Origin: Escherichia phage PECP20
Direction: 5' to 3' (one strand)
Sequence record: OQ873415.1
Length of the DNA stretch: 64,000 nt
Shown here: positions 27,871 through 58,520 of the stretch, in pieces
Position numbering within the stretch: position 1 is the stretch's first letter
How the letters are laid out: each line of letters starts with the position of its first letter
Translations under genes and position numbers: made by a program
The notes under the pieces: generated by a model
Databases searched by the model: none
Told to the model about the DNA's origin: nothing
The model's input: the letters and a program-made list of their open reading frames with translations, nothing else

Positions 27871-28971
27871 TTACGCTGTGAAGATTTTATCCCACATCGC
27901 AACAACTGCATCTCGGTTATACTTCTTCCATACGGCTTCAGCACGTTTAACTCGAGCTTCGTATGTGTCAGTGAATTCTAATACAGCTTTTGTGTAAAGC
28001 GCAACTACTTCTTTCTTAGGAGTAGAGGAATCAATTTCTACACGCACAGTATCTGGGTCATATTCGAATGTCGCGTGCGGATAATCCTTAAAAACTAACT
28101 GAATCACAGGGACACCTTTAGAGATGGCTTCAATAGAACTATTCTCTACCGTACCCGTGTCAGGACACGTATTGATAAGTGCTTTAGCTGTTTTAAGACG
28201 TTCCATGATTTCACTGTGTGGAGCATCAATAATAACAGGATACTTAGCCGGTGGTGCCCATTTACTAGGACAGTATCCTGCACCATTTTCGCCTAGTGCT
28301 TTAATCGCTTCAAGAGCAACATCAGTACGACGCATTTTAGTGTCATAACGTTGTGCACTAATAATCAGATCAGTCGCCGGAAGAACTTCAGGTTTCTCAT
28401 TCAAACAAATAACCGGATAATCTTCGGCTTCAAACAACGGATTTGCTCGCCAATAATCATAATCAATTTTGTCAGTCAGACCTGAAGTCATATAACAATA
28501 TTTGCGTTCAAATTCACGGAAGGCTTTAGTAGGAGCATAACTCTTACCACCGTTCTTATGAATTTGAATAGTCTGGTCCCAAATTTGAACAATACCACGA
28601 GATACCGGTTCAAATGGTGTTGCCATAAAATTCTTATGAACTTTAGAGAGACCTGCGTCTTTAATTGCCTGAACGGTTAGTTTGGTCGGTTCCATTGTAA
28701 CAACGAAATCGTACTCATTAATGCCGGCTAGTTCAACAATCTTACGAGCCATAGTATAACTCATACCTAGACTGAATTTAGTCAGATGACCAACAGGATG
28801 ATGATTAACCTTCCAATCACCAAATGTGTCATTATCAAAACCGATATAATCAATATCGGCACCGATAGAAACTAAATATTTCAACACATTTAAATGTACT
28901 GCTTCAAGACCACCTTGTACACGTTCAGGATTAAATGGGACTGCACGAGATGGGATAAACATAACTTTCAT
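27871..28971 (-). CDS. putative GT-B fold glycosyltransferase (candidate DNA hmC sugar transferase)
   Basis: 366 aa; C-terminal donor-binding motif PDTGTVENSSIEAISKGVPVI matching the E-x7-E / EAxxxGxPVI signature of GT-B (GT4-like) enzymes; occupies the gene 60/mobA slot of T4. Confidence 0.6.
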   Translation of the reverse strand: MKVMFIPSRAVPFNPERVQGGLEAVHLNVLKYLVSIGADIDYIGFDNDTFGDWKVNHHPVGHLTKFSLGMSYTMARKIVELAGINEYDFVVTMEPTKLTVQAIKDAGLSKVHKNFMATPFEPVSRGIVQIWDQTIQIHKNGGKSYAPTKAFREFERKYCYMTSGLTDKIDYDYWRANPLFEAEDYPVICLNEKPEVLPATDLIISAQRYDTKMRRTDVALEAIKALGENGAGYCPSKWAPPAKYPVIIDAPHSEIMERLKTAKALINTCPDTGTVENSSIEAISKGVPVIQLVFKDYPHATFEYDPDTVRVEIDSSTPKKEVVALYTKAVLEFTDTYEARVKRAEAVWKKYNRDAVVAMWDKIFTA

Positions 28972-40623: not shown

Positions 40624-41145
40624 TTAGTAACCATTATCCTGACGTTCAAAGTTGTGTTGGTTTTTCAAGTAGTAAAGTTTAAAGATTTCTTCAGCAGAAA
40701 GACCAAGACCTTGGAACATATTTAGAACGAAATGCAGAATATCAATCATTTCAAATTTAATTTCAAGCTGGTCTTCAGGAGACAGTTCATCGATACGACG
40801 ATTTCGATATTCAGCATGTTGTGCTTTCCATGGCTTCCATACACTGCTAGCGGCTTTTTCACCATTGCTCATACCACCAAGTGAAGTCAGCAGTTCACGG
40901 AATTCATCATCAATATAATCTTTCTGATTACGCAGCCAATCAACAACATCACCAGCAGTAGCCAATTCATCAGGATGTTTGTTATGTTCAGGCTTGTCAT
41001 TTGCCAGACGAACCTGTAAAGATTTCTGCATATCAAGCATTACCTGCAGTGGGTCTTTATCTTCGTGAATCAGAGCATTAAAATAAGCTTCTTCTGCTTT
41101 ATCAACACCAGAAATAAGTTGTGAACATTCATTAAAGTGCGCCAT
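40624..41145 (-). CDS. 56: dCTP/dUTP pyrophosphatase gp56 (MazG-like)
   Basis: ATG at 41145 with SD AAAGGAAAAATA upstream gives 173 aa (T4 gp56 171 aa); MazG-type E-rich motifs. Confidence 0.8.
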   Translation of the reverse strand: MAHFNECSQLISGVDKAEEAYFNALIHEDKDPLQVMLDMQKSLQVRLANDKPEHNKHPDELATAGDVVDWLRNQKDYIDDEFRELLTSLGGMSNGEKAASSVWKPWKAQHAEYRNRRIDELSPEDQLEIKFEMIDILHFVLNMFQGLGLSAEEIFKLYYLKNQHNFERQDNGY

Positions 41146-44184: not shown

Positions 44185-44433
44185 TTATTCTTTTTCGCGA
44201 ATAATAATTACTTGTTGAGGCTGCTGAGCAGATTTCTTTTCGGCAACGATAGACCAAATTAAAGTTCCAATCCAACCAATCATCGTCCAGTTAAAGAGTA
44301 AAGATACAAAGAAGATTGCTGTTGTGCTTTTTGTGCCACGAATAAGTGCGATTACCCAAGGCAACATGTAAATGATGATTGAACCAATACCTGCGATTAA
44401 AACTGCCACTGAACTAGCTACGAATAATTCCAT
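44185..44433 (-). CDS. small integral membrane protein (61.4 position)
   Basis: 82 aa, two predicted TM helices, Trp-rich. Confidence 0.45.
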   Translation of the reverse strand: MELFVASSVAVLIAGIGSIIIYMLPWVIALIRGTKSTTAIFFVSLLFNWTMIGWIGTLIWSIVAEKKSAQQPQQVIIIREKE

Positions 44434-44494: not shown

Positions 44495-44863
44495 TTAATT
44501 AAATTTGTTTAAACGTTCAATACACTGGACGTAGTTATTCGCGATTTGTTTCTGGGAAGGCTCTTTGCCAGTTGTTTCAACATAGCGAATGAATGCGATT
44601 TCAGTAGCCTGTAAGCAATGTTCTTTAACGCGTTGTTCTTTTGACAATGCTACAGTATCAGAGTCACGATAACGTTGAGCATGGGCATCAGCTTGAATCA
44701 TTCGATTACCTACAGTAACCGGGTCTTCCACTTCGACTTTAGGTTGGTTGTACTGTTTAACATTCGGGTTATAAATCAATTGGCCAACATTATTAGGGAT
44801 AAAGCCATGAGCACCACATCCAGTTAATCCGAATACCATTGCTAAAGCTATTAATTTTTTCAT
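44495..44863 (-). CDS. putative lipoprotein
   Basis: 122 aa; signal peptide with lipobox LTGC. Confidence 0.5.
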   Translation of the reverse strand: MKKLIALAMVFGLTGCGAHGFIPNNVGQLIYNPNVKQYNQPKVEVEDPVTVGNRMIQADAHAQRYRDSDTVALSKEQRVKEHCLQATEIAFIRYVETTGKEPSQKQIANNYVQCIERLNKFN

Positions 44864-47613: not shown

Positions 47614-47955
47614 TTAAAAGAATTTAAATTTTTTCTTGGTCCGTTCATTAAAAGCTTGTTGTACTTGCATTGTAACACATTTTTCAACATGTGGTGCAAG
47701 TTCTGCTTTTCTGTCCTGGTCAAGAACTGCAAAGTCCATTACGATTTTACCATCAACCCAGTCTAGTTTTGTAATATAGACTATATGATGAGAACCATCT
47801 TCAAGTGTAATCAGAATCTCTTGAATGACATTTTCCATTGCTGAACGGATAATTTTAAGAGATTCATTAAACACTCGTTCTTTGCGAATGTCTTCCCCTT
47901 CCGAAGAAGGGGATTCATCAACGATTTCTAGATTTAAATCATCGAGATTATTCAT
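47614..47955 (-). CDS. 40: gp40-like head assembly protein (by position)
   Basis: Internal ATG at 47955 gives 113 aa (T4 gp40 ~114 aa); lies between uvsX and 41. Confidence 0.5.
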   Translation of the reverse strand: MNNLDDLNLEIVDESPSSEGEDIRKERVFNESLKIIRSAMENVIQEILITLEDGSHHIVYITKLDWVDGKIVMDFAVLDQDRKAELAPHVEKCVTMQVQQAFNERTKKKFKFF

Positions 47956-49120
47956 CGAAATCTTCCATTTCGTCAAGGTCGTTTTCAATATCTGCTGCAG
48001 ACGGAGCATCAGAAGCTTTAACCGGAACTTTAGTTGTTGCTTTGCAATTAATAAGGTCGTTAACAGCGTCATCAACTTCTTTAATAGAAGAGATAGCGCC
48101 TAGTTTATATTTAGTTTCAATTGCATCTCGGAAAGGTTTGTGTTTAAACAACGGTCCCCAGAATTCTACACAATCAGTAGCTTTAGCACGCCACGATTTC
48201 TCTTCACGAATCATTTCACCTGTTTCTTCGTCAAGGAATTCACGAGCATACCAACCAGCTTTAGGCTTAACAACAAATCCAATTTCAGTTGCCATTTCTA
48301 ACAAGCCACTGAATGGATCGATACCGCCGTCAAAATTAACCGTGATTGGGAAAGTAGATTTCTCTTTAACTGTACGAGATTTTTCTGCTTTCAACGTGAA
48401 GTCATAACCGGTCAATTCTGTACCTTCTTTAACCTGACGTTTAGAGATAAAGAATACAGTGTTAGCAGAGTAAAGAATACCTGTACCACCACCCATAATC
48501 TCTTTAGGATATAGTCCGCCGATTTCCATTGCTGTATGGTTGATTGCAACACACGGAATATCTTTAATAGTCAGATAAGGAGTCACAATACGGAACAGAG
48601 ATTTAAGTGCCTTAGCACGAGACATATCACCTACGACTTTCTCGTTCAATGCATCTTCGGTTTCTTTCTTAGATGCAGTATTACCGATTGAATCGATAAA
48701 GATAATAACTTTATCACCGCGTTCAATAGCGTCAAGCTGATTAGTCATATCAACTTTAAGTTGTTCTACAGATTGAATCGGAGTATGAACTACACGGTCT
48801 AAATCAACACCCATTGAACGAAAATAAGATTCTGAAGCACCGAATTCCGAGTCATAAAACAAACAGATTGCATCTTTATATTTCTTCATATACGCTGCAA
48901 CCATAGTCAGCCCAAACAATGTTTTAAAGTGTTTAGAAGGAGCAGCAAAAATAGTTAAGCCTGATTGCAATCCTGCATTCAGAGCACCACCTAGTGCGAT
49001 ATTCAACATCGGAATACGAGTAGGGACTTCATCACGATTATTAAACAGCTTAGACTTAGTCAAGTCTGCAGTCATTTTAGAAGTAGAAGCTTTAATCAGA
49101 CGAGATTTTAAATCAGACAT
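47948..49120 (-). CDS. uvsX: Recombinase UvsX (RecA/Rad51 family)
   Basis: 390 aa (T4 UvsX 391 aa); Walker A and acidic C-terminal tail. Confidence 0.9.
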   Translation of the reverse strand: MSDLKSRLIKASTSKMTADLTKSKLFNNRDEVPTRIPMLNIALGGALNAGLQSGLTIFAAPSKHFKTLFGLTMVAAYMKKYKDAICLFYDSEFGASESYFRSMGVDLDRVVHTPIQSVEQLKVDMTNQLDAIERGDKVIIFIDSIGNTASKKETEDALNEKVVGDMSRAKALKSLFRIVTPYLTIKDIPCVAINHTAMEIGGLYPKEIMGGGTGILYSANTVFFISKRQVKEGTELTGYDFTLKAEKSRTVKEKSTFPITVNFDGGIDPFSGLLEMATEIGFVVKPKAGWYAREFLDEETGEMIREEKSWRAKATDCVEFWGPLFKHKPFRDAIETKYKLGAISSIKEVDDAVNDLINCKATTKVPVKASDAPSAADIENDLDEMEDFDE

Positions 49121-49218: not shown

Positions 49219-49767
49219 TTAACGAGCCCATTTGATGATTTCTGTAATCAAACCATTACGTTCGCTTGCATTAAATCCTATAATTTTGTTAGCACCATCA
49301 TGATTAAGTAATTGATACGTTTGGATTTTGTTATGAATTGCAAACTCTTCAAAATGTGAAATGACTGTATTAAAACCGAATGAAGACAAAGTAATAAGGT
49401 CGTCTTCAAAACTTTCAGTCATTTCATTACGTGTTAAAATAATTGTGAACACATCATGGTTTTGGCAAAGACGAACATAGTCCTGTTCATAAACATCAAG
49501 AACAGAGTCCGCATCTTGCCGAATACGTCCATAAACCCAGTTACTAATATATCCACGGTCTAACAGATAAATCTTAGTAGGGTCTAAATAATTCAACATC
49601 GTTTCGAAACAGCCAACTTCATTTCGAGACTTAACATCGAAACGTCCATCAACTGTTCGTTTAGGAAAATCAATCTTTACATATCTTTCACTAATTTCCA
49701 TTATGTCATTAATGAAAGTTGTTTTACCAGCATTATCTGGGCCGTCTACTAAAATAATTTTAGCCAT
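49219..49767 (-). CDS. P-loop kinase-like protein (unknown substrate)
   Basis: 182 aa; Walker A GPDNAGKTT at residues 9-17; size and layout of small nucleoside/nucleotide or sugar kinases; not a T4 gene at this locus. Confidence 0.5.
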   Translation of the reverse strand: MAKIILVDGPDNAGKTTFINDIMEISERYVKIDFPKRTVDGRFDVKSRNEVGCFETMLNYLDPTKIYLLDRGYISNWVYGRIRQDADSVLDVYEQDYVRLCQNHDVFTIILTRNEMTESFEDDLITLSSFGFNTVISHFEEFAIHNKIQTYQLLNHDGANKIIGFNASERNGLITEIIKWAR

Positions 49768-49768
49768 T

Positions 49769-50668
49769 TTATTCCTCGATTACGACATCTTCGTATTTAG
49801 GTATATTATATGGTGAAGAAATTAAAGCATTAAAGTAGATGAACTCACCAAGACCTGGATGGAATACTTCTTCAGGATTTTCGAAATATTGAATCTTCGG
49901 GCGTCCTTTAAGAATTTGATAGTACTCAGTTTTAGTTGGTTTAAAAATTCGAATCAGCGCTTCTTCAGGATACTTATTTCTGTCGAAGCTATTATTTGGA
50001 TCGGTTATATAAAGCGGTTGACCTAATTGAATTGCACATTCAACCACTTGTTCAAAACGATAACATGGGTCACTAATTCGAAATGGATGAAAAATACCAT
50101 CTAGATGAATAGGAGCCAAATCACCTACAAGACGCTGCATGATGGAAGGACGTATAACTTTCTGAGTTACGATAATCTTATTACCATCTGCACCTGCGTT
50201 AACCAGCACTTCTTTTTGACGTTCATTCAACACGGTAGTTTGAAGTGAACGATTAACTGACAACATATCGGTTTTTAAGAATTCGTCAATATAAAAACGT
50301 TGTTTATTAGGGTCTGCAGTGATATTGAAATTGAATTCTACATCAAAAGCGCCGCCATAACCAGTGATATCTGTGATTAGAAAATCACAATCATAATAAT
50401 CAATTAATGAATCAACCACAAATTCATTTTCAGTCCAGAAATATTTACGAGTGTTATACGCGTTATCTTTATACCATAATGGAACAAACTTAAATTCTGG
50501 GAAAAGACGTTCGCATTCTTTAATATCAGATGCATTACGTGGATATGTAATCACATCACCCGGATTAGCACGGTGCAAATGAAGTTGGAAGTTGCCATCC
50601 TTAAGGATAGCATACTGTCCAGTTTCATAAGACCGCATACTCAAGATTGGTACGCGGAAAATAGCCAT
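49769..50668 (-). CDS. hypothetical protein occupying T4 beta-gt locus (possible transferase)
   Basis: 299 aa; no confident motif (a DCD tripeptide after a hydrophobic stretch could be a DxD); translationally coupled to flanking genes. Confidence 0.45.
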   Translation of the reverse strand: MAIFRVPILSMRSYETGQYAILKDGNFQLHLHRANPGDVITYPRNASDIKECERLFPEFKFVPLWYKDNAYNTRKYFWTENEFVVDSLIDYYDCDFLITDITGYGGAFDVEFNFNITADPNKQRFYIDEFLKTDMLSVNRSLQTTVLNERQKEVLVNAGADGNKIIVTQKVIRPSIMQRLVGDLAPIHLDGIFHPFRISDPCYRFEQVVECAIQLGQPLYITDPNNSFDRNKYPEEALIRIFKPTKTEYYQILKGRPKIQYFENPEEVFHPGLGEFIYFNALISSPYNIPKYEDVVIEE

Positions 50669-51384
50669 TAGTCAAGGAATCCTTTAACATAATCAAAATC
50701 ACGTTCAAACACATGGGCGCTTACCATGGTATGAGTATAATCACCAACTTCTACACCGCATTCGTTAGCGATATAATGAAGTAATTTTCCTTGGAGATAA
50801 AAATCCAACTGCATAACAACAGCACAGTTCTGAGAACGCATATGACAGTGGGTATAAAGCTTACCATCACGAATATAATAAGTTACTGAGTCAGTACATG
50901 GATATTCAAGTGTTTCGTCCGAATCAAGCAAAGCCTGATCAGAACTTTCTAGAATTTGGAACACAACTCTTCGAGAGTTAGGTTTTTCTTTAAGTTCTTT
51001 TAGAAGAGTTGGTAATTGGGCCGCAATGCGAGGGCCATAGAAAGTGTTGAAGTTCGCCGGCAAAACATCTGATTTTGGTTTAGAAATAAATTTAGCGACA
51101 TTAGGATATGCCTTAAACGCTTCTTCTGCGTTGGTACCACCAGAAATCATAAACTTCCAGAAGTCTTCGGCATATTCATAAGAGATGCGGTTAATACGTG
51201 GGTCGGTCATTTTGAATGATGATGGAGTGTCAACAACTACTGTCATAGACCCAATTTCATTACAACGTCCAATACGAGAATCAGTTACGAATTCGGGGTT
51301 TTCTAAAATTTCACGATTGACTGCTTTAAATGCGGTTTGAAAATCTGCGGCTTTGATATATTTCATTGTGTTATGTTTTCCCAT
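50668..51384 (-). CDS. 42: Thymidylate-synthase-fold pyrimidine hydroxymethylase, gp42-like (dCMP hydroxymethylase)
   Basis: 238 aa; motifs NSRR, PCTDS (catalytic Cys), MRSQN and C-terminal SAHVFERDF parallel T4 gp42 NPDSRRG / MCTNT / MRSND / SLHVYSRHF as recalled. Confidence 0.6.
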   Translation of the reverse strand: MGKHNTMKYIKAADFQTAFKAVNREILENPEFVTDSRIGRCNEIGSMTVVVDTPSSFKMTDPRINRISYEYAEDFWKFMISGGTNAEEAFKAYPNVAKFISKPKSDVLPANFNTFYGPRIAAQLPTLLKELKEKPNSRRVVFQILESSDQALLDSDETLEYPCTDSVTYYIRDGKLYTHCHMRSQNCAVVMQLDFYLQGKLLHYIANECGVEVGDYTHTMVSAHVFERDFDYVKGFLD

Positions 51385-51426
51385 GTTTACCTCAATACAA
51401 TTTATTATATACTCAATTCATAAAGC

Positions 51427-51666
51427 TTATTTGAATTTCTTGACAATGTTGATATAACGTAAAGCTTCAGAATCTATACTTCCAAGAACACTATGAAGGA
51501 ATGCATCAGTGTAGTATTCCAATTGAACAGGTTCTTTAATCACTTTAGCCGCTTTGGTTTCAAACAGGCCCATAAGGGCCTTTTTAAGAATTTGTTCGTT
51601 AGTGTTCAGTTTCATAGTCAAAATCTCTTCGTTAAGTTTATAATTAAAACTTTTTCTAGAAATCAT
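51427..51666 (-). CDS. hypothetical small protein
   Basis: 79-aa ORF, coupled to upstream gene (ATGA-type overlap). Confidence 0.35.
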   Translation of the reverse strand: MISRKSFNYKLNEEILTMKLNTNEQILKKALMGLFETKAAKVIKEPVQLEYYTDAFLHSVLGSIDSEALRYINIVKKFK

Positions 51667-52823
51667 TCCGGGTACCTCAAAGCGTCATCAGAGTTAGTTA
51701 TATCAATAATAGATATGGAGTTTTCTGCTAACCCGTTTTTAGATAATTGACGTTTATAATACCTTTCACAATATGTACACGTTGACCCACAGATTTCATT
51801 AGCACAATCAAAATCTGGATGTCTGAACCACCTTTTTTCTAAAAAGCCATCTAACAAAGAGGTTTCAATATTTACTGTATGTGAAAACTCAGTCTCATTT
51901 TCAAGAGTGAAAATAGTCTCTAAAGGCTTCCACAGTTCTAACAAATTACCTTCAAACTTTTCAGAAGCGTATGCTTCAAGAACTTTCAAAATGTAGTCTG
52001 TGCTACCTGTACGTCCTGAAACTTTGAATTGAGTGATACCAATATCATTATAAAGTTTCAAATCTTGAGGACGAACAAAACGAGTTCTCAACCAGTTAAA
52101 TGGGTCTGTATCACGAGCTTTAATACAGTGCTGCATAGGATATCCATTTAAGGATTTAGCATCATCAGCGGTAACATCAGTACTATGGAAAATATAGCAA
52201 GAGTCACGATAACTACAATGTGTTGTATACCCTTTACCAGCATTAGAACAGAACTCATTTACAAGAACTTCAAATATTATATTGTTCTTATTGCAAAACT
52301 CTGCTGCACGCTTCAGGAAAGAAACTGAACGGTTCTTATGAATTCCGCAACAGACCTTTTTGATGTTATATTGGTCATGTAAGTATTTGATTTGAGTTAC
52401 CGCATCGACATGTAGAATTGTTGAAACTTCAATCTCAATATCTTTATTGACTTCACGAACAATTTCCATAACAACAGGGTTAGCGATAGTAATACGCCAT
52501 ACGCCTATTGACCAAAGATACTGAACATAATCCTGAATAGCTTTCTTCTTCCACTCAACTAGTTCTCTTTTTGAACCAGGATTTATCGTGTTGAGTGTAT
52601 AGTTAAAGCAAATACCTAATTCGTTACAACGTTTAACGTAGTCTTCTAACATCTTTTTGTCAACGTCAGGAAGCCTAAAATCAGGTCTGGCTGCTACAAA
52701 AGCCATTTCTCTTGTAGAGCCATATACTTCGTTTATCAAGCTATTAGGATAGGTTTTATTGAGCTCTACGATTTTATCAAGAAGAGCTAAATCAAAATTC
52801 GTTCCGATTTTAAAAGTATTCAT
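51663..52823 (-). CDS. Cys-rich putative metalloenzyme (possible Fe-S enzyme, U32-like?)
   Basis: 386 aa; many Cys including C-terminal CANEICGSTCTYC (C-x4-C-x3-C-x2-C) and HCSYRDSC resembling the U32 signature CxSYxxxC; assignment speculative. Confidence 0.45.
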   Translation of the reverse strand: MNTFKIGTNFDLALLDKIVELNKTYPNSLINEVYGSTREMAFVAARPDFRLPDVDKKMLEDYVKRCNELGICFNYTLNTINPGSKRELVEWKKKAIQDYVQYLWSIGVWRITIANPVVMEIVREVNKDIEIEVSTILHVDAVTQIKYLHDQYNIKKVCCGIHKNRSVSFLKRAAEFCNKNNIIFEVLVNEFCSNAGKGYTTHCSYRDSCYIFHSTDVTADDAKSLNGYPMQHCIKARDTDPFNWLRTRFVRPQDLKLYNDIGITQFKVSGRTGSTDYILKVLEAYASEKFEGNLLELWKPLETIFTLENETEFSHTVNIETSLLDGFLEKRWFRHPDFDCANEICGSTCTYCERYYKRQLSKNGLAENSISIIDITNSDDALRYPE

Positions 52824-52879
52824 TTTTTTGCATCTCGCGTTAATTGATGCGATGGTTTTTGCAGGTCTTACTTAAATTA

Positions 52880-53281
52880 TTATAGATTTGGTTTATATGA
52901 TTTAAATGTTTCGAATTCGCCTTTATTCATAAGAGCTTTGAATTCGTCAGGACGCATAGCTTTGTCGTCGATAATCCAATCATATACTGGTTTATGTGTT
53001 AGCAAATTATGGTACTTCAAACCAATGTTTTCCAAGTTCTGAATCAGACTTGGGAGAATGTCAATTGCTATACGACCAGGACCTACCGACTTCATACCAC
53101 GGGCAGTGTAAAGCGTTATGGTATGCCCTGCATCATACAGGGCATTAATGGCAGACACCATTTCGACGTCTGGTTTGAAGTTCACGTAATCACGATTGTT
53201 ATTCCACTCTGTTATACAATCATCGACATCAAAACAAAGATTAAGCATGTTTTCTACACGGTGCATTAGATTCGTTCCCAT
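52880..53281 (-). CDS. putative HAD-superfamily phosphatase-like protein
   Basis: 133 aa; N-terminal FDVDDC (DxDx motif I-like) followed by TLYTARG; weak. Confidence 0.4.
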   Translation of the reverse strand: MGTNLMHRVENMLNLCFDVDDCITEWNNNRDYVNFKPDVEMVSAINALYDAGHTITLYTARGMKSVGPGRIAIDILPSLIQNLENIGLKYHNLLTHKPVYDWIIDDKAMRPDEFKALMNKGEFETFKSYKPNL

Positions 53282-54951
53282 TGATGAGTGATATCGCCGC
53301 CGATTGGACGATAGGAAACACCAGTTTCTTTATCAGTTAGTACCCATTTACCAGGATTTTTTGTAATCAGAGTAGCCGTTACAGGTTCTGCTACGTCATA
53401 ACTAATAGAGCCGTCTTGAAGTACACGGCCCATGTTACGTAATTGCTTAGTCAGAAGTTCCATACCTTTATAATATGCGGCAACCGCTTTAAGTGGATTA
53501 TTCTTGAAATAACCACCTAATGCAATCCAGATAATTGCTACTGCCAAATGATGATACTCGTTAAACGAACTCATCTTTCCATATTTGTAAACTAATGGAT
53601 TGATGTTAATAGTCAAATTACAAGTTGTTTCATCAATAGTAAACTGACCCCAGGTCGGATTAGCATTGAATTCATCATAACCTGAAACAGCATAAAGCAC
53701 TTTAGCTTCATCATACAATTTTGGCCCGTAAATCTTGGTTTCACCAAAATATCCACGAGGGTCGATAAACTTGACTTCGCCGTTATCGGTAATCATAGTA
53801 TTACTGAAGTTCGGGTCACCATGAATAACAGAGTACTGTCCCTGAGAACGGTTATGATAACGAATAAGATGTTCTAAAGCTTGTTTCAACATTGGCTTCA
53901 GACGTCCAATCTTAGTGTAGTTCACATGTGTGATTTTACCAAATGAATCAATCAATGGCTGAATGCTTTCACAACGATCAATAACTTTCGTATAGAACTC
54001 TTTAGTGAAATCACGGCGAACAGTTTCAGGACTTACAAAATAAGTGTCCGTGCTGAATTTCAGTGCATCTAAAATTGCATCAACAATTTGTGGACGAGCA
54101 AGACTTGATTTGGATTTAATATATTCAAATGCCGGCTTACCTTTAATACGTTCCATTTCAAAATTATTTTCATTTACCGAAACTAACTGAGGAACTGAAT
54201 CTGATTTCACTTTCAAATACCATGAAATCTCATCTTTTTGAAGAGCTCGACCTTGTTCGGTTAACGCGAATTTAGTTACAGTTTCTTCGCCAATTTCAAC
54301 TGCATTAAAACTACGATTCAGTTCACGAACTTCATGAGCCTTTTCAAGTTTAGGCATATCACCTAAATCAATTAGATTCATAAGCTCTGATTTATTGAAT
54401 GCACTGCCGTAAAGGAATTCTACGAAATCACGACCTTTGCAGTATTCGTGAATTTCCTCATCAGTAGAACCCATGTAGAATTCCCAGTCTTTGAACTGAT
54501 AAATTCCTACAACATTACCACCTGTTGAACCTACGTTAGTGATATTTTCACCATCGAAATTATATCGACATTCATCACCCTTAACATAGATTGCGTTAAC
54601 ATTCCAAGACCATGAACCAAAGTCAGGAATAATATCACACCAGTTAACAATTACGTTATGGCCATCTAAATCTTTGTATAATTTAGCAAGAGCATAAGCA
54701 GAACCATACGCTTCATCAACTGTACGAATAGTCACATTGAACCCTTCTTGCTCGCAATAAGCTCGAACAGTTTCAGCAAATTTTGAATGAACTACTACAA
54801 TAATTTCATCTGCGCCAAGGTCAGAATAAATTGTATACAAATTGCTCAGAATAGTGTCTTGTTTATAGTTAACAAGCACCTTAGGAATATGGTGAGTAAT
54901 TGGATATAAACGAGTTGCTAATCCAGCACCAAGAATAACAGCTTTTTTCAT
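53266..54951 (-). CDS. Bifunctional sugar-1-phosphate nucleotidyltransferase (N-term) / APH-like anomeric sugar kinase (C-term)
   Basis: 561 aa; N-terminal MKKAVILGAGLATRLYPIT (G-x-G-T-R-L nucleotidyltransferase motif); C-terminal VIHGDPNFSNTMITDNGEVKFIDPRGYFG (HxDxxxxN catalytic loop plus IDxR of choline-kinase/APH fold). Confidence 0.6.
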   Translation of the reverse strand: MKKAVILGAGLATRLYPITHHIPKVLVNYKQDTILSNLYTIYSDLGADEIIVVVHSKFAETVRAYCEQEGFNVTIRTVDEAYGSAYALAKLYKDLDGHNVIVNWCDIIPDFGSWSWNVNAIYVKGDECRYNFDGENITNVGSTGGNVVGIYQFKDWEFYMGSTDEEIHEYCKGRDFVEFLYGSAFNKSELMNLIDLGDMPKLEKAHEVRELNRSFNAVEIGEETVTKFALTEQGRALQKDEISWYLKVKSDSVPQLVSVNENNFEMERIKGKPAFEYIKSKSSLARPQIVDAILDALKFSTDTYFVSPETVRRDFTKEFYTKVIDRCESIQPLIDSFGKITHVNYTKIGRLKPMLKQALEHLIRYHNRSQGQYSVIHGDPNFSNTMITDNGEVKFIDPRGYFGETKIYGPKLYDEAKVLYAVSGYDEFNANPTWGQFTIDETTCNLTININPLVYKYGKMSSFNEYHHLAVAIIWIALGGYFKNNPLKAVAAYYKGMELLTKQLRNMGRVLQDGSISYDVAEPVTATLITKNPGKWVLTDKETGVSYRPIGGDITHQWERI

Positions 54952-54992
54952 GTTGAAGTCCTCATTGGTAAGTAGGTGTATTGTACACTATT

Positions 54993-55136
54993 CTAGTTAA
55001 AGCATTCATACTTTGCCTGTAGACCAATCATAATCCATCCAATTACAAGTGTTGGAATCATTACTGGAGCCGTTAAGCCCCAGTAGATAGTCATGGCAAG
55101 CATCAATAGTAAAAGTCCTATTGTTATTGCTTTCAT
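54993..55136 (-). CDS. small hydrophobic protein (47 aa)
   Basis: Hand-translated: MKAITIGLLLLMLAMTIYWGLTAPVMIPTLVIGWIMIGLQAKYECFN; ATG overlaps stop of SIS gene; possible Imm-like membrane peptide. Confidence 0.3.
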   Translation of the reverse strand: MKAITIGLLLLMLAMTIYWGLTAPVMIPTLVIGWIMIGLQAKYECFN

Positions 55137-55768
55137 TGTTCGCCTCGTAACATGGCACCTAGTGCACCACCAGGGTGGAACTTAAGGAAGTCATTAGAGG
55201 TAAATCCACGTTCAGACGAAAGGTTGATAGCAAACGTATCGATAAGCGCTAACAACAATGTAGTGGACATGGTCGGAGCCAGAGAATTCTCATCAACCTC
55301 TACCGCGATGCCTGTACAGAACGTATAATCAAAAAGAGCTTCGTATTCTTGCGGAATGTCAGGGTTACAATGTAACAGAATCTGTTTAACCTGAGGACGA
55401 ATCATACGAAGATGTTTAGCAACACCTATCATTTCTTCAGTCTTACCAGAACGACTGATGTGAACTAATACATCATTAGGTGCAATAAATCCTGCGTCGC
55501 CATGAGAATAATGCCCGGTGTTCAAATACATGCTAGGAATACCTAGTGAAGCAAAAGTCTCGGAAGCTTTAGTTGCGATATTAGCGTTCTTACCAACACC
55601 TGTAATAATTACTCGGCTTTCATAATTACTCAGTCCAGGGCGACGAAGAGTTTCAAGAATAGCATTATATCGGGCAGAGTTTTGACTAATTACTTTAGCC
55701 ATAGTGGCAAGAGATGAAGCTTGTTTTACGATTGCGTCAATAGCGATAGTGATTGGTGTAGTTTTCAT
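55133..55768 (-). CDS. SIS-domain sugar-phosphate isomerase (arabinose-5-phosphate isomerase KdsD/GutQ-like, no CBS domains)
   Basis: 211 aa; ITGVGKNANIA...HGDAGFIAPNDVLVHISRSGKTEE...APTMSTTLLLALIDTF...FLKFHPGGALG parallels the KdsD SIS domain motifs as recalled. Confidence 0.65.
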   Translation of the reverse strand: MKTTPITIAIDAIVKQASSLATMAKVISQNSARYNAILETLRRPGLSNYESRVIITGVGKNANIATKASETFASLGIPSMYLNTGHYSHGDAGFIAPNDVLVHISRSGKTEEMIGVAKHLRMIRPQVKQILLHCNPDIPQEYEALFDYTFCTGIAVEVDENSLAPTMSTTLLLALIDTFAINLSSERGFTSNDFLKFHPGGALGAMLRGEQ

Positions 55769-55808: not shown

Positions 55809-58520
55809 TCAAAAATCGAACATATCGAACAGAGATGCTTTCTTCTCGTAATCGAGTTTCGCTGCTGATGTGAATCCTTCAAGTGGTTTAATAAATGTCT
55901 TCTCAAGGAGAACAGTGTAGTCCATCCAATGAAGTACGTCGTCTTTAATTAAATCTGTGATTTCAGTACCAGAAGGCCATGCGATACATTTATCACCGAA
56001 CGGGTTTCCATCACGTAAAGGCAGAACGTATACCTTTTCGCCTTCTACAACTTGTGGAGCATCAATATTACCTTTGATAGCTCTGTTATATGTCAGAATT
56101 CCACGAATATGGAACGGGCATTTAGGACCAGGGAATCCACCAACGTCATATTTAGCAATGTTATTCGCAGAAGATACTGACGCGATGCTAATATAATTCA
56201 ATTGACGGAATTCTTTTTCAAACTCTTTAAAATATTCTTGTAATGATTCTTCACCTTCTTGAAGCATACGACGAATACATTCTTTAAGAGCTTTCTGTAC
56301 TGCTTTAGGGGTCGAAGATTTCTGTGTTTCGAGACCCATGATTTTGAGTTTAGGCTCAGCGTATCTGGTTCCTTCCATATCCCACACGTTTAATGCATAA
56401 CGTTTCTTACCAGTCCAGAATCCACCAATACCTTTAGAACCGAGTGGAGGACCAGCAATAGCTTCTCGGTCCATGAACATCAAATGTTGCTTATTATTCA
56501 TGTATTCACACATTTCACGGAAACCTCTATCAATAGCCGGTTCCATACGTTCACGAGCGAACTTATCTAAGAAGTCTACCCAATGGTTGGTATCACGGAA
56601 TTTAGATTCACCAACCTTATCAATAATTTTATCTGCAGATACGTAAATAGAGTCTGTATCACCATAAAGAACGAAAGCTTCACCTTCTGTACCACAAACT
56701 TCGTTCAGATATTCATTAACTTTACGTTCAATCCACTGTAAAGCCATTTGACCAAATGTTGTGATTGCAGTTGCATTACGCAAATCGTAATAACGGAACC
56801 AAACGTTACCAAGTGCACCATAAAGCGAGTTGATGAGCAATTTACGGTTAATTTGTGCAGTCATACCTGCAACTTCAGTACGTTGAGCTCTAAACAACAT
56901 TTCATTAAGAGATTTAGCAGACAACTTTTTAATCTTTTCTTTAATCTCATCGCTGAAGTCGAAACGATAATCAACATCTAATGGTTCGTCAACAGAAAGA
57001 TTAGGATTATGCAACGCCTCTTTAATTATTTCACCATTACGTTGAGCCGCAAGCATGTAACCTTTATGTTCTTTACGTTGATTAAAGACCTTAGTGATTT
57101 CAGTTGGAACTACACCATCACGGTCTTTATAATACATCATGCCATTAGGAGAACAACTGTACACATCTGAAGGACGTTCAGCGATTGCGTTAATATAATC
57201 ATGCAGTGGAGCTACTTTAAACGTTCCTGCTATTGTTTCCGGGCTAATATTCACTTGGCGAATAATACTTGGATACAGGGATGTAAGGTCGAAACTCATT
57301 ACATATTTGTATCGATTTGGAATAGGTTCCTTAACAAAAGCGCCAGGATAAGGTTGAACCGGGTGAGAACGACCTTGTGGAATCACCTTGTTCTGCTCTT
57401 TAAGGCTATTAAAAATAATAGCATCCCATGTTTTAATTGGGCTAAACACAGATTGAATCTGTATCTTAGCATAATAACCCATGTCCAAACTCAAGTTGAT
57501 GAACTGACGCTTAGCATCAATTTGCAATACACGATACACGTCGATAATGTTATAAGAAATATATCGTTGGTGATTGCTTTCACGAAGCTTAGAAATAGGG
57601 CCGTCATATTTCAGTTTACCAACGTTCAATTCAAATTCTGAAATGTAATCCAGAGAATACGACGGTTGATTGGTAAAAGAGAATTTTTTGTAAAGGTCAA
57701 TGTAATCAAGAACAGAGATACCGAACAATGTAATGATTTCACGAGAACCATACATGTTTTCGATAACTTTAACACGAGTTTTACGATGTGGTGATAAACG
57801 TTTTGCTGTGGATTCACCAAAAATATTCTTGATTCTGTTATACACATATGGAATATCAAATGACTCAACGTTCCATCCAGTCAAAATGACAGGAGTTTTC
57901 TGTTGCCAGAAGTTGAGATATTCCATCAACAATTCTTTTTCGTTATCGAACGGCATATAAATGATTTTATCGATAATTTCGGATGGAACTTCATCACCAC
58001 CTTGTTCTTGAAGCTTAGCAGCGATTTCAATAGACCATTCTTCTACATTACCATATGGAGAATTCAATAGATCAAATACGTAGAACCTGTCGTCAATTGA
58101 GTCATAATGAGTGATAGCATCAATCGGATGTTTTGCTTGTGACGGCTCAGGGAACCCATCCGGAGATGTTACTTCGATGTCGAAGTTAGCCACACGAATT
58201 TTTGTATGGTCGTATTTGATTTCATAGTTATAAGTGTCAGACAAATACGCCAATTTGAAATCGTCCATGCCAAGTGCTTCAAGTCCGATATCTTCCATGC
58301 GTTTAATCCATTGGGAGGCATCACGCATATTAGCGAACAACTTACGAGTACACGGCTTACCGTAGATATCGAAATATTTCGTAGCCTGACTTTCTGGACA
58401 ATGTGCAAACAACGATGGCTTATACTCTACTTCACGAGTACGTTCACGGCCATTAGAATCGATGTAACGTTCAAAAATTGAATCACCAATCTGTTCAACC
58501 GTTAAGTAAAATTCTTTCAT
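55809..58520 (-). CDS. 43: DNA polymerase gp43 (family B, with 3'-5' exonuclease)
   Basis: 903 aa; N-terminus MKEFYLTVEQIGDSIFERYIDSNGRERTREVEYKPSLFAHCPESQATKYFDIYGKPCTRKLF and exo motif NFDIEV match RB69 gp43 as recalled; pol motifs SLYPSII, YGDTDS. Confidence 0.95.
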   Translation of the reverse strand: MKEFYLTVEQIGDSIFERYIDSNGRERTREVEYKPSLFAHCPESQATKYFDIYGKPCTRKLFANMRDASQWIKRMEDIGLEALGMDDFKLAYLSDTYNYEIKYDHTKIRVANFDIEVTSPDGFPEPSQAKHPIDAITHYDSIDDRFYVFDLLNSPYGNVEEWSIEIAAKLQEQGGDEVPSEIIDKIIYMPFDNEKELLMEYLNFWQQKTPVILTGWNVESFDIPYVYNRIKNIFGESTAKRLSPHRKTRVKVIENMYGSREIITLFGISVLDYIDLYKKFSFTNQPSYSLDYISEFELNVGKLKYDGPISKLRESNHQRYISYNIIDVYRVLQIDAKRQFINLSLDMGYYAKIQIQSVFSPIKTWDAIIFNSLKEQNKVIPQGRSHPVQPYPGAFVKEPIPNRYKYVMSFDLTSLYPSIIRQVNISPETIAGTFKVAPLHDYINAIAERPSDVYSCSPNGMMYYKDRDGVVPTEITKVFNQRKEHKGYMLAAQRNGEIIKEALHNPNLSVDEPLDVDYRFDFSDEIKEKIKKLSAKSLNEMLFRAQRTEVAGMTAQINRKLLINSLYGALGNVWFRYYDLRNATAITTFGQMALQWIERKVNEYLNEVCGTEGEAFVLYGDTDSIYVSADKIIDKVGESKFRDTNHWVDFLDKFARERMEPAIDRGFREMCEYMNNKQHLMFMDREAIAGPPLGSKGIGGFWTGKKRYALNVWDMEGTRYAEPKLKIMGLETQKSSTPKAVQKALKECIRRMLQEGEESLQEYFKEFEKEFRQLNYISIASVSSANNIAKYDVGGFPGPKCPFHIRGILTYNRAIKGNIDAPQVVEGEKVYVLPLRDGNPFGDKCIAWPSGTEITDLIKDDVLHWMDYTVLLEKTFIKPLEGFTSAAKLDYEKKASLFDMFDF

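Follow-up and report, generated by a model that had tools for sequence, protein, structure and literature searches.

The interval 49219-55768 of Escherichia phage PECP20 (record OQ873415.1; the whole 64,000-nucleotide stretch analysed is called the window here) is very probably the RB69 gp45–gp55 cluster of a Mosigvirus, serving arabinosyl-5-hydroxycytosine DNA, and no observation in this analysis contradicted the arabinosylation reading. The interval is encoded on the minus strand between uvsX and the gene 43 DNA polymerase, shows 99.2% nucleotide identity over its whole length to Mosigvirus phage p000v, and has protein-level identity to RB69 of ~98–99%. It shares genus, gene order, proteins and uvsX-43 position with the RB69 gp45–gp55 and HY126 Afh systems. 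At a coverage of at least 80%, the cluster is kept in at least 151 phage records, which excludes a chance arrangement. Arabinofuranosyl-5-hydroxycytosine has reportedly been the subject of papers by Thomas (2018), Mahler et al. (2025, Cell Host Microbe), He et al. (2026, Nat Chem Biol) and Lee...Weigele, Peters (2026). Since the RB69 cluster was discussed in 2018 and its biochemistry appeared in 2025–2026, the system is not new and the finding was known beforehand; relative to the published cluster, the new element is a lead, a possible back-up hydroxylase of the U32 family.

Table 1. Genes of the cluster, its flanks and related genes elsewhere in the window
Feature	Coordinates	Strand	Length (aa)	RB69 equivalent	Basis or remark
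Thymidylate-kinase-like P-loop nucleotide kinase	49219..49767	-	182	gp45	PHROG 761
GT-B fold glycosyltransferase, intact	49769..50668	-	299	gp46:47	GT-B fold
Predicted 5-hydroxy-dCMP synthase	50668..51384	-	238	gp48	Pfam Thymidylat_synt, PDB match, signature residues
79-aa protein	51427..51666	-	79	gp49	PHROG 8601
U32-family Fe-S-type protein	51663..52823	-	386	gp50	Pfam/family searches
Small HAD-superfamily phosphatase, AfhF-like	52880..53281	-	133	gp51	TIGR01689, PHROG 1238, DVDD motif
Bifunctional sugar-1-P nucleotidyltransferase (N-terminal) and sugar kinase (C-terminal), AfhE-like	53266..54951	-	561	gp52:53	
Hydrophobic (membrane) peptide	54993..55136	-	47	gp54 position	translation MKAITIGLLLLMLAMTIYWGLTAPVMIPTLVIGWIMIGLQAKYECFN
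SIS-domain arabinose-5-phosphate isomerase (Ru5P to A5P)	55133..55768	-	211	gp55	Pfam, NCBIfam, PHROG
Proposed second DNA arabinosyltransferase	27874..28971	-		ORF003c / gp3	outside the interval, 21 kb off
dCTP pyrophosphatase (gp56 homolog)	40627..41145	-			tblastn; upstream pathway step
imm homolog	44188-44433				elsewhere in window
imm.1 homolog	44510-44857				elsewhere in window
uvsX	47948-49120				flank of cluster
gp43 (DNA polymerase)	55809-58520				other flank of cluster

An earlier note, made from the letters alone, had described seven co-directional, overlapping genes replacing the T4 beta-gt/imm locus. Its seven large ORFs (182, 299, 238, 386, 133, 561 and 211 aa) were all found on the minus strand where it had placed them, and the gene total rises to nine with two small ORFs of 79 and 47 aa, both of which carry annotations in relatives. 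All nine are co-directional and several overlaps are of the ATGA type, but the genes do not overlap throughout, as junctions range from −16 to +56 nt. The uvsX-43 interval of T4 contains segA, beta-gt, 42, imm and imm.1 and measures ~3.6 kb, not ~2.3 kb as the note had it. Replacement holds for beta-gt, which, like segA, was without counterpart in a homology search of the window, but not for imm and imm.1, whose homologs lie elsewhere in the window; beta-gt and segA are the only genes of the T4 interval that are missing. Searches of Pfam, NCBIfam and PHROG upheld the domain readings (P-loop kinase, TS fold, HAD, NTP_transferase/APH and SIS). The central proposal of a phage-made NDP-pentose donor, derived from ribulose-5-P via arabinose-5-P for cytosine hypermodification in RB69-type DNA, also stands, and the report of arabinosylation in RB69-type phages to which it appealed is correctly given (PMC6024577).

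The base was named incorrectly, as hmC, and the 238-aa protein as a gp42-like hydroxymethylase. Judged by its sequence, this protein is a predicted flavin/O2-dependent dCMP C5-hydroxylase of the thymidylate synthase superfamily. It matches Pfam Thymidylat_synt (57 bits), is 98.7% identical to RB69 ORF048c, and aligns with PDB 9iqc/9ir2/9iqu at 534 bits and ~97% identity, 9iqc-type being the solved HY126 enzyme. Its residues C163, E160, D194 and N186 occupy the positions of ThyA C146, L143, N177 and D169. The acidic substitution at L143 and the dCMP-specifying Asp (ThyA N177D) are common to gp42 and, together with the presence of a TS-fold protein in the T4 gene 42 position and the original MS-based assignment (PMC6024577), favor a gp42-type dCMP hydroxymethylase and arabinosyl-hydroxymethylcytosine DNA, as in the 2018 version. 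However, the ThyA D169 position is Asn186 in the window enzyme (D169N, the marker of 5hodCMP synthases) and Asp in T4 gp42. Moreover, RB69 gp48 expressed in E. coli gave 5hodC, bound FMN and incorporated 18O from 18O2, and NMR with MS established that the modified base is arabinosyl-5-hydroxycytosine, the sugar being ether-linked at C5 (PMC13326640), which was independently confirmed for Mosigvirus NP (PMC13390438). The hydroxymethyl reading is thus refuted for RB69 by published chemistry and is hardly credible for the window. Since the base is 5-hydroxycytosine and not hmC, the TS homolog is no hmC-forming enzyme.

In the base branch of the proposed pathway, the dCTPase (40.6–41.1 kb; 64.7% identity to the Thanatos-2 dCTP pyrophosphatase, E 2e-73, tblastn) would supply dCMP and exclude dCTP, and the TS homolog would convert dCMP with flavin and O2 to 5-hydroxy-dCMP. 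A phage dNMP kinase and the host NDK would raise this to the triphosphate, which the polymerase would insert in place of C. The T4 hmC pathway is alike in its dCTPase, TS-superfamily dCMP C5 step, incorporation, GT-B decoration and gene neighbourhood. The chemistry differs, being hydroxymethylation in T4 gp42 (folate, Asp) and predicted hydroxylation in the window enzyme (flavin, O2, Asn at ThyA D169). T4 draws on host UDP-glucose, whereas the sugar here would be arabinofuranose from phage-made UDP-Araf, and the link, unlike that of T4, an ether directly on the ring.

In the sugar branch, the SIS isomerase would convert ribulose-5-P to arabinose-5-P. It matches Pfam SIS (38.8 bits), KpsF/GutQ TIGR00393 (110.8 bits), KdsD NF008141 (E 3e-30) and PHROG 5670 (E 2e-116), and its ortholog is also given as arabinose-5-phosphate isomerase in PMC6024577 and PMC13326640. 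At 211 aa it falls below the NCBIfam equivalog cut-off (110.8 vs 203.7), so the likeness to KdsD/GutQ extends to the SIS part only. By analogy with HY126 AfhE, the 561-aa protein would be an A5P 1-kinase plus UDP-Araf pyrophosphorylase. Pfam NTP_transferase matches at residues 3–99 (38 bits), NCBIfam sugar-1-P nucleotidylyltransferase families also match, and residues 308–409 give weak fructosamine-kinase, APH, EcKL and RIO1 matches. The N-terminal Rossmann nucleotidyltransferase domain resembles MurU/GlmU; those cellular enzymes lack the fusion to an APH-like kinase. Sequencing errors break up 46/47 and 52/53 in the RB69 reference, whereas the window has intact 299-aa and 561-aa ORFs; re-sequencing of RB69 likewise gave gp52:53 as one 561-aa ORF (PMC6024577). 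The small phosphatase, whose start codon is at 53281 or an ATG at 53266 (then 128 aa), matches the capsule-biosynthesis phosphatase family TIGR01689 (E 1.9e-13) and PHROG 1238 (E 3e-43) and contains a DVDD motif; by analogy with HY126 AfhF (PMC13326640), it would strip the 5-phosphate from Araf-1,5-bisphosphate.

The order of these steps differs from that in the earlier note, where dephosphorylation to free arabinose preceded an anomeric kinase. In the work of He et al., to the extent that PMC13326640 relays it, the kinase precedes the phosphatase, and A5P passes through Araf-1,5-P2 and Araf-1-P to UDP-Araf. Accepting that order, the 561-aa protein would use its C-terminal kinase domain to form arabinofuranose-1,5-bisphosphate from arabinose-5-P, the HAD phosphatase would remove its 5-phosphate, and the N-terminal domain of the 561-aa protein would yield UDP-arabinofuranose. 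KdsD/GutQ-like isomerase and capsule-type phosphatase matches, along with some database annotations as 'GlmU' or 'phosphoheptose isomerase', would also fit LPS or capsule (KDO-type) metabolism with no DNA role. The probability of this is negligible, as RB69-type DNA is arabinosylated at every cytosine and the phage transferases use UDP-Araf as donor in vitro. In addition, the sugar, hydroxylase and GT-B genes are co-transcribed and keep strict synteny across arabinosylating phages, and the Thanatos ortholog of the nucleotidyltransferase/kinase is essential, its inactivation abolishing phage propagation. Published work therefore contradicts the capsule reading.

The transferase, left unnamed earlier, can be sought in two genes. 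The 299-aa protein that the note had listed as unknown has a GT-B fold and is the putative first (base-proximal) DNA arabinosyltransferase; which enzyme acts first is our inference. The second gene encodes a protein 99.2% identical to RB69 ORF003c (tblastn), scoring 826 bits to PDB 9iqz/9ir0, 'phage HY126 glycosyltransferase', and is proposed to be beta-arabinosyltransferase 2. The GT-B enzyme and the ORF003c-type transferase (27.9–29.0 kb) would add one and then a second arabinose onto the 5-OH, giving beta-D-Araf-(1,3)-alpha-D-Araf-5-hydroxy-dC, and arabinosylation of this kind blocks restriction enzymes and Cas nucleases. The modification structure, hydroxylase activity and AfhE/AfhF-type steps have experimental support from other phages.

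The 386-aa Cys-rich enzyme was present as the note had described it but had been given no role; it is now placed in the U32 family, which includes the prephenate-dependent, O2-independent hydroxylases RlhA, TrhP and UbiU/V. We predict, with the chances about evenly balanced, that it is a second, prephenate-dependent and O2-independent cytosine C5-hydroxylase. If so, the phage would have a source of 5-hydroxycytosine under conditions that disable the O2-requiring enzyme. The protein has the invariant Cys and the U32 signature, and its best E. coli match is RlhA. The hhalign probabilities, only 78% for RlhA and 3–12% for UbiU and TrhP, count against the prediction. It differs from the E. coli paralogs in an identity of only 14–24%, an insertion within the signature, a C-terminal motif CX4CX3CX2C, and a presumed deoxynucleotide or DNA substrate in place of 23S rRNA ho5C2501 (RlhA), tRNA ho5U34 (TrhP) or anaerobic ubiquinone (UbiU/UbiV).

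In related phages, a chorismate mutase or a DAHP-synthase–chorismate-mutase fusion adjoins the U32 gene. Genuine AroQ chorismate mutases stand beside it in LC53, Entb_45, Klebsiella, Thanatos-2 and phiR1-RT, and the 40 phage chorismate mutase records listed of 51 are all beside U32 or TS-homolog genes; none was found in the window. Four distant viral contigs have such fusions immediately upstream of U32. In some viral contigs the full pathway includes U32 and has no TS-type hydroxylase close by; the operon of one metagenomic contig, L049, reads GT1, SIS, NT/kinase, TMK-like, DAHPS-CM, HAD, U32, with no TS homolog within ±7–10 kb visible on the metagenomic contigs. Elsewhere U32 adjoins TAGT-like and other GTs (L063) or dCMP deaminase, TMK and UDG (L011/L014). 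Acinetobacter phages account for 57 records among the TS-homolog matches and for none among the U32 matches listed, and the phage collection held no U32 match below 80% identity. In phage Konradin the cluster lacks both U32 and chorismate mutase. Counting against a U32 hydroxylase are the absence of a chorismate mutase from the window, the E. coli Dhakaviruses, which have the cluster without U32, and RB69 gp48, which alone suffices for aerobic 5hodC formation (PMC13326640); a TS homolog may also lie farther out on the metagenomic contigs. Even RlhA and TrhP have yet to show direct hydroxylase activity in a reconstituted system (PMC6599085). A 'sugar or heterocycle reductase' has been suggested for the U32-type protein (PMC13326640); such a reductase, or an accessory redox partner, for example one that re-reduces flavin for the TS-type hydroxylase, is an unlikely alternative.

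A further reading, that U32 (with chorismate mutase in relatives) is an RlhA/TrhP-like tRNA or rRNA hydroxylase incidental to the cluster, draws on RlhA ranking first among the E. coli paralogs in hhalign and on the targets of known U32 nucleic-acid enzymes, 23S rRNA C2501 and tRNA U34. T4-like phages do encode tRNAs. It is quite improbable, as the 386-aa phage protein has no counterpart of the extensions that RlhA (653 aa) and TrhP (453 aa) carry at the C terminus. In the phage collection, U32 occurs only in Straboviridae genera with the TS-hydroxylase/arabinosylation cluster, inside the cluster at the loci examined, and its distant members have genes for DNA glycosyltransferases, NDP-sugars and dNMP metabolism around them.

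The P-loop kinase matches PHROG 761 'thymidylate kinase' (E 5.6e-45) and, weakly, the dTMP kinase family TIGR00041. It is kept in all arabinosylation clusters examined, including those of Acinetobacter phages, Dhakavirus, Thanatos and metagenomic L049; its RB69 gp45-type equivalent is labelled 'nucleotide kinase' in Table 1 of PMC13326640, and we infer its role in the pathway. The 79-aa gene consistently follows U32 directly and adjoins it in 162 of 162 phage records, and its product is 45% identical to phiR1-RT g049, which is flanked by U32 and a genuine chorismate mutase. The 79-aa protein was itself rejected as a chorismate mutase: a CM_2 search gave no match at E ≤ 10, and hhalign against the family gave a probability of 0.4%, where the positive control reached 97.9%. 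The 47-aa peptide gene has an ATGA overlap at the SIS stop codon and is annotated in p000v and, with predicted 'transmembrane segment(s)', in LC53.

The genes between uvsX and the DNA polymerase gene encode a pathway that has been described before in RB69-type phages, that of arabinosyl-5-hydroxycytosine. They are equivalent to the RB69 ORF045-055 module, and the window brings no new chemistry to the published pathway. Arabinose was detected in RB69 DNA by Thomas et al. 2018, who proposed that ORF055c and ORF53_52c are UDP-arabinose genes and that ORF003c encodes the transferase (PMC6024577). Lee et al. 2026 reported that the RB69 base is 5-hydroxycytosine, not 5-hydroxymethylcytosine (hmC), carrying one or two arabinofuranoses (Araf) through an ether bond, with UDP-Araf as the donor (PMC13326640). 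The identical modification was described in another Mosigvirus in a further 2026 paper (PMC13390438). Membership tests on the window's predicted proteins agree, as far as sequence can tell, with this account. The outline of the earlier note was therefore correct, but four details were wrong: the base, which it took to be hmC, the hydroxymethylase, the order of kinase and phosphatase, and the transferase, which it left unnamed. The known cluster shows how a large group of T4-like phages makes its DNA resistant to restriction enzymes and Cas nucleases; many such phages are candidates for phage therapy of E. coli, Klebsiella, Shigella and Acinetobacter infections.

Features of the pathway and its neighbourhood in the window
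Feature	Coordinates	Strand	Identity or evidence
Second transferase	27874-28971		99% identical to RB69 ORF003c; PDB 9iqz, 826 bits
dCTPase	40627-41145		Homology search
T4 imm homolog	44188-44433	minus	65% identical; homology search
T4 imm.1 homolog	44510-44857	minus	32% identical; homology search
uvsX	47948-49120		Cluster boundary
P-loop kinase	49219-49767	minus	Thymidylate-kinase-like (TMK-like)
299-aa GT-B protein	49769-50668	minus	RB69 gp46:47 type
TS homolog	50668-51384	minus	RB69 gp48 type
79-aa ORF	51427-51666	minus	PHROG 8601
U32 protein, 386 aa	51663-52823	minus	RB69 gp50 type
HAD protein	52880-53281	minus	Small phosphatase type
561-aa nucleotidyltransferase/kinase	53266-54951	minus	RB69 gp52:53 type
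47-aa ORF	54993-55136	minus	Very hydrophobic peptide
SIS isomerase	55133-55768	minus	KpsF/GutQ-type
DNA polymerase gene	55809-58520		Cluster boundary

On the sequence of its polymerase and of the whole interval, the source phage is assigned to Mosigvirus. Over 6.8 kb, the region shares 99.2% identity with Escherichia phage p000v, and its coverage reaches 80% or more in at least 151 phage records. Composition is unbroken across the cluster (GC 0.31-0.42, flanks alike), and spacing at the gene junctions, from a 16-nt overlap to a 56-nt gap, matches the expectation for a single transcription unit; a scan for consensus promoters and terminators was uninformative, with 18 promoter-like sites against 27 expected by chance. 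All seven large ORFs described earlier are present, but two small conserved genes, both annotated in p000v and in Serratia phage LC53, had been overlooked. Profile searches bore out every domain call (P-loop kinase, TS fold, HAD, fused NTP-transferase/kinase and SIS) and identified the subtypes listed in the table.

The counterpart interval in T4 holds segA, beta-gt, 42, imm and imm.1 in about 3.6 kb. The claim that the cluster replaces the T4 beta-gt/imm locus does not hold for imm and imm.1, homologs of which are kept some 5 kb away; no beta-gt or segA homolog was found within the 64-kb window. A segB-like homing endonuclease gene lies between the HAD phosphatase and U32 genes in the LC53 locus (L005 4352-4990) and in that of Yersinia phage phiR1-RT (L010 4352-4990), a sign that mobile elements move through the cluster, as with segA in the equivalent interval of T4. 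Several U32 clusters of Klebsiella-/Proteus-type phages (loci L007, L008, L022, L026, L027 and L033) have no detectable SIS isomerase gene, and in this same group the TMK-like kinase is placed between HAD and U32. These phages presumably take arabinose-5-phosphate (A5P) from host KdsD/GutQ.

The TS homolog contains a thymidylate synthase domain (Pfam PF00303, 57.2 bits, cutoff 24.3), with TS matches also in the PDB. It is 98.7% identical to RB69 ORF048c and approximately 97% identical to PDB entries 9iqc and 9ir2 (534 bits) and to 9iqu. Its Asn186 occupies the position of D169 in E. coli ThyA, where T4 gp42 has D171, and its other signature residues are the catalytic Cys163, Glu160 (ThyA L143) and Asp194 (ThyA N177). 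Of these residues the Asn at ThyA D169 is the decisive one, being the published predictive signature of 5-hydroxy-dCMP synthases (PMC13326640). RB69 gp48 converts dCMP to 5-hydroxy-dCMP with bound FMN, taking the oxygen from O2 (PMC13326640). We predict that the TS homolog is a flavin-dependent dCMP 5-hydroxylase of the RB69 gp48/HY126 type. A dCMP hydroxymethylase of the T4 gp42 type, as the gene had previously been read, is contradicted by Asn186, at a position where folate-dependent methylene-transfer enzymes keep Asp.

For the sugar branch, PMC13326640 cites He et al. 2026 and Mahler et al. 2025 for a route in which A5P comes from the isomerase and is converted to Araf-1,5-bisphosphate by the fused enzyme's C-terminal kinase, after which the HAD phosphatase takes off the 5-phosphate and the N-terminal domain of the fused enzyme forms UDP-Araf. 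The kinase thus precedes the phosphatase in the route as cited there, the reverse of the order first proposed for this cluster. The SIS protein matches PF01380 (38.8 bits, cutoff 25) and TIGR00393, the KpsF/GutQ subfamily (E 8.5e-32). This match spans only profile positions 2-153 of 268, leaving the C-terminal part of the cellular enzymes uncovered, and full-length equivalog scores were not reached (TIGR00393, 110.8 against a cutoff of 203.7 bits; KdsD, 105 against 505). The HAD protein has an FDVDD motif and matches PHROG 1238 (E 3e-43) and TIGR01689 (50.5 bits, below the cutoff of 162), with no Pfam match at E<=0.1. The 561-aa protein is a single ORF in which an N-terminal NTP_transferase domain (PF00483, 38.4 bits, residues 3-99) is fused to a C-terminal kinase-like domain with weak Fructosamin_kin, APH, EcKL and RIO1 matches (residues 308-409); its predicted domains have the architecture of AfhE, the A5P 1-kinase/UDP-Araf pyrophosphorylase of HY126. 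Two transferases can now be named: the homolog of ORF003c and the 299-aa protein, a putative DNA arabinosyltransferase with a two-Rossmann-domain GT-B fold, which was recognized by fold search since a PDB sequence search gave no match. The genes for the 299-aa and 561-aa proteins are intact, while their counterparts are split in the RB69 reference NC_004928 (ORF046/047 and ORF052/053). Both splits have been attributed to sequencing errors (PMC13326640), that in ORF052/053 being shown by re-sequencing (PMC6024577), and the intact ORFs support these corrections.

One sizeable gene, encoding the U32 protein, is unexplained by the published pathway, and for it we propose a testable function. Table 1 of PMC13326640 labels gp50 a 'sugar or heterocycle reductase', the pathway assigns U32 no role, and that paper's Discussion treats the pathways of RlhA and of tRNA ho5U as unrelated. 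The U32 family includes RlhA, which forms 5-hydroxycytidine in 23S rRNA, TrhP, which forms 5-hydroxyuridine in tRNA, and UbiU/UbiV; all are Fe-S proteins that require prephenate and act independently of O2, and prephenate is the oxygen donor in anaerobic ubiquinone synthesis (PMC5727448, PMC6599085, PMC10990095). We suggest, with about even odds, that RB69 gp50-type U32 proteins are Fe-S, prephenate-dependent, O2-independent cytosine C5-hydroxylases, with dCMP as the most likely substrate.

The 386-aa protein has the Peptidase_U32 domain and fold, with no match in a PDB sequence search. Its subfamily profile matches RlhA best (hhalign probability 78%, E 1.8e-5, 194 columns), compared with 12% for TrhP and 3% for UbiU, and a usable alignment was obtained from RlhA only; in a MAFFT alignment with the four E. 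coli paralogs, divergence was too great for mapping cysteines. The phage protein keeps the Glu and both Cys that are conserved in the U32 signature, and has further Cys. The phage signature reads E185VLVNE190FC192...C203SYRDSC209Y, against E161...C169...C176Y in RlhA and UbiU, and holds a short insertion that leaves exact equivalence of the Fe-S ligands unproven. Ten cysteines (C158, C177, C192, C203, C209, C233, C340, C345, C349 and C352) are invariant in 24 homologs of 47-85% identity, among them a C-terminal CX4CX3CX2C. RlhA needs two motif Cys and two C-terminal Cys, and the phage protein likewise has motif and C-terminal Cys. It differs from RlhA and TrhP in length (386 aa against 653 and 453 aa) and is 14-24% identical to the E. 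coli paralogs. Orthology to these characterised members was not found, judged by DUF3656 and the C-terminal region of RlhA and by the C-terminal domain of TrhP, and the NCBIfam UbiU model gave 18.5 bits (cutoff 440). By these comparisons the phage protein is assigned to a separate U32 subfamily.

Relative to Shewanella phage Thanatos-2, U32 is the best conserved of the cluster's proteins, at 81% identity; UvsX reaches 69%, the TS homolog 68%, and the kinase, GT and nucleotidyltransferase/kinase 41-56%. Across genera (loci L005, L006, L008, L009 and L010), U32 is better conserved than other pathway enzymes in most comparisons, and relative to LC53 and Thanatos-2 its conservation also exceeds that of the core recombination protein UvsX.

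The prephenate dependence suggested for phage U32 is based on genetic linkage to genes for chorismate mutase (CM) or for a fusion of DAHP synthase with CM (DAHPS-CM). CM adjoins U32 in five examined loci, those of LC53, Enterobacter phage Entb_45, Klebsiella phage CP-p-KP-21072, phiR1-RT and Thanatos-2, and the five are genuine AroQ enzymes (Pfam CM_2, 33-45 bits, cutoff 27). In Thanatos-2 gene order is rearranged and U32 and CM are still together. The phage CM family comprises 51 records in the phage collection, and all 40 of the matches listed adjoin U32 or TS-homolog genes. In four distant viral contigs, with U32 47-50% identical, a DAHPS-CM fusion, which joins the first reaction of the shikimate pathway to the one that forms prephenate, lies immediately upstream of U32. 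The operon in one distant contig, L049, reads GT1-like, SIS, nucleotidyltransferase/kinase, TMK-like kinase, DAHPS-CM, HAD and U32, and thus contains all families of the window's cluster minus the TS-type hydroxylase. A gene resembling that of the 299-aa protein (GT1-like) is directly upstream of U32 in six distant loci. On a 61-kb Logan contig (L063), the neighbours of U32 are a Gly_transf_sug GT on one side and a TAGT-like (TET-associated-type) DNA glycosyltransferase on the other, and a dUTPase/DCD and a UDP-galactopyranose mutase are encoded nearby; this gene content may point to DNA with galactofuranosylated 5-hydroxypyrimidine, made in the absence of a TS-type hydroxylase. A further contig of 466 kb carries thymidylate kinase, UDG, Pol III alpha, dCMP deaminase and U32. 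In these distant contexts (the six GT1-like loci, L063 and the 466-kb contig) a TS homolog was not found within 7-10 kb on either side of U32; on the metagenomic contigs, L049 included, TS homologs may lie beyond the stretches covered. Separately, two metagenome contigs (L012/L013, from ENA and Logan) encode a 48% identical U32 homolog among genes for NT5C, an NMN transporter, a deoxynucleoside kinase, a radical-SAM/SPASM protein, a second faint U32 and a nucleoside 2-deoxyribosyltransferase, and may represent a different nucleoside-modification pathway on the same U32 subfamily.

The TS-type hydroxylase has matches in 373 phage records, including 57 from Acinetobacter and about 20 from Rhizobium/Agrobacterium phages. 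U32 occurs in 221 records of the phage collection, where no match fell under 80% identity, and the hosts among the matches listed are Enterobacterales or Shewanella only. Since so few host clades are involved, the aerobe/anaerobe pattern corresponds to no more than a few independent events. The cluster of Acinetobacter phage Konradin is full but has neither U32 nor CM, and the E. coli Dhakaviruses also lack U32, indicating that U32 is an accessory module and not a core step. Neither tblastn nor a custom HMM run on six-frame translations found a CM anywhere else in the 64-kb window, and this Mosigvirus would have to depend on host PheA/TyrA. The nearest cellular relatives of DAHPS-CM, at only 43-46% identity, are from Bacteroidota and include both anaerobes (Muribaculaceae, Bacteroidaceae) and aerobes (Flavobacterium, Marivirga). 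Owing to these mixed oxygen lifestyles, the idea that TS-less U32 loci belong to phages of anaerobic hosts was dropped.

We propose a model whereby Mosigvirus-type phages would have two parallel routes to 5-hydroxycytosine, the TS homolog using flavin and O2 under aerobic conditions and U32 using prephenate in the anoxic gut. Such dual routes would parallel TrhO/TrhP and UbiIHF/UbiUV, and also the ribonucleotide reductases, one kind aerobic and one anaerobic, that the phage itself encodes. In related phages, a CM or DAHPS-CM fusion of their own would raise the supply of the oxygen donor, and in some uncultured phages U32 would be the sole route, supplying DNA glycosylation of the arabinosyl, TAGT or galactofuranose type. 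If true, this would set two precedents, a U32 hydroxylase with DNA precursors as substrate and a phage-encoded use of prephenate as oxygen donor, widening prephenate-dependent hydroxylation from RNA and quinones to DNA precursors and explaining how gut phages fully modify their DNA in the absence of oxygen. It would also provide a sequence marker for 5-hydroxypyrimidine-based modification in uncultured phages without a TS-type hydroxylase, and would be relevant to the phage DNA-modification and U32/anaerobic-hydroxylation fields alike. Direct hydroxylase activity of the U32 RNA enzymes, RlhA and TrhP among them, has yet to be reconstituted (PMC6599085), and the phage protein would then offer the U32 field the in vitro system it needs, as a small and soluble enzyme whose substrate is a simple nucleotide. 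In a literature search that did not extend to Mahler et al. 2025 and He et al. 2026, no paper tied DNA hydroxylation to a phage U32 protein, to chorismate mutase or to prephenate, and earlier publication is possible.

The 79-aa ORF came under consideration as a CM since the gene at the syntenic position is annotated 'chorismate mutase' in LC53 and Entb_45. An AroQ (type II) CM is excluded: no CM_2 match was obtained at Pfam E<=10, hhalign gave 0.4% against 97.9% for the control, and the homolog in phiR1-RT, g049, is a gene separate from the CM of that phage, g048. The ORF is a fast-evolving, U32-linked gene and not a cryptic CM. Genes of this gp49 type always follow the U32 gene (162 phage records), and within Mosigvirus many records are at 80-95% identity, with U32 at least 99% identical in most of the same phages. 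The protein has no Cys and no family matches in profile searches beyond PHROG 8601, and may be a U32 accessory factor. Phage Clarke_MM3, one of the group without a SIS isomerase gene, also lacks both small genes after U32.

The second overlooked gene, between those for the isomerase and the nucleotidyltransferase/kinase, has an ATGA overlap with the SIS stop codon and is kept in p000v and LC53, where the LC53 annotation predicts one or more transmembrane segments. Its product is a predicted membrane peptide, encoded inside a cytosolic nucleotide-sugar operon. The 50-aa ORF called here by ORF prediction (55006-55158) is incorrect in frame, and it is the 47-aa ORF that is conserved.
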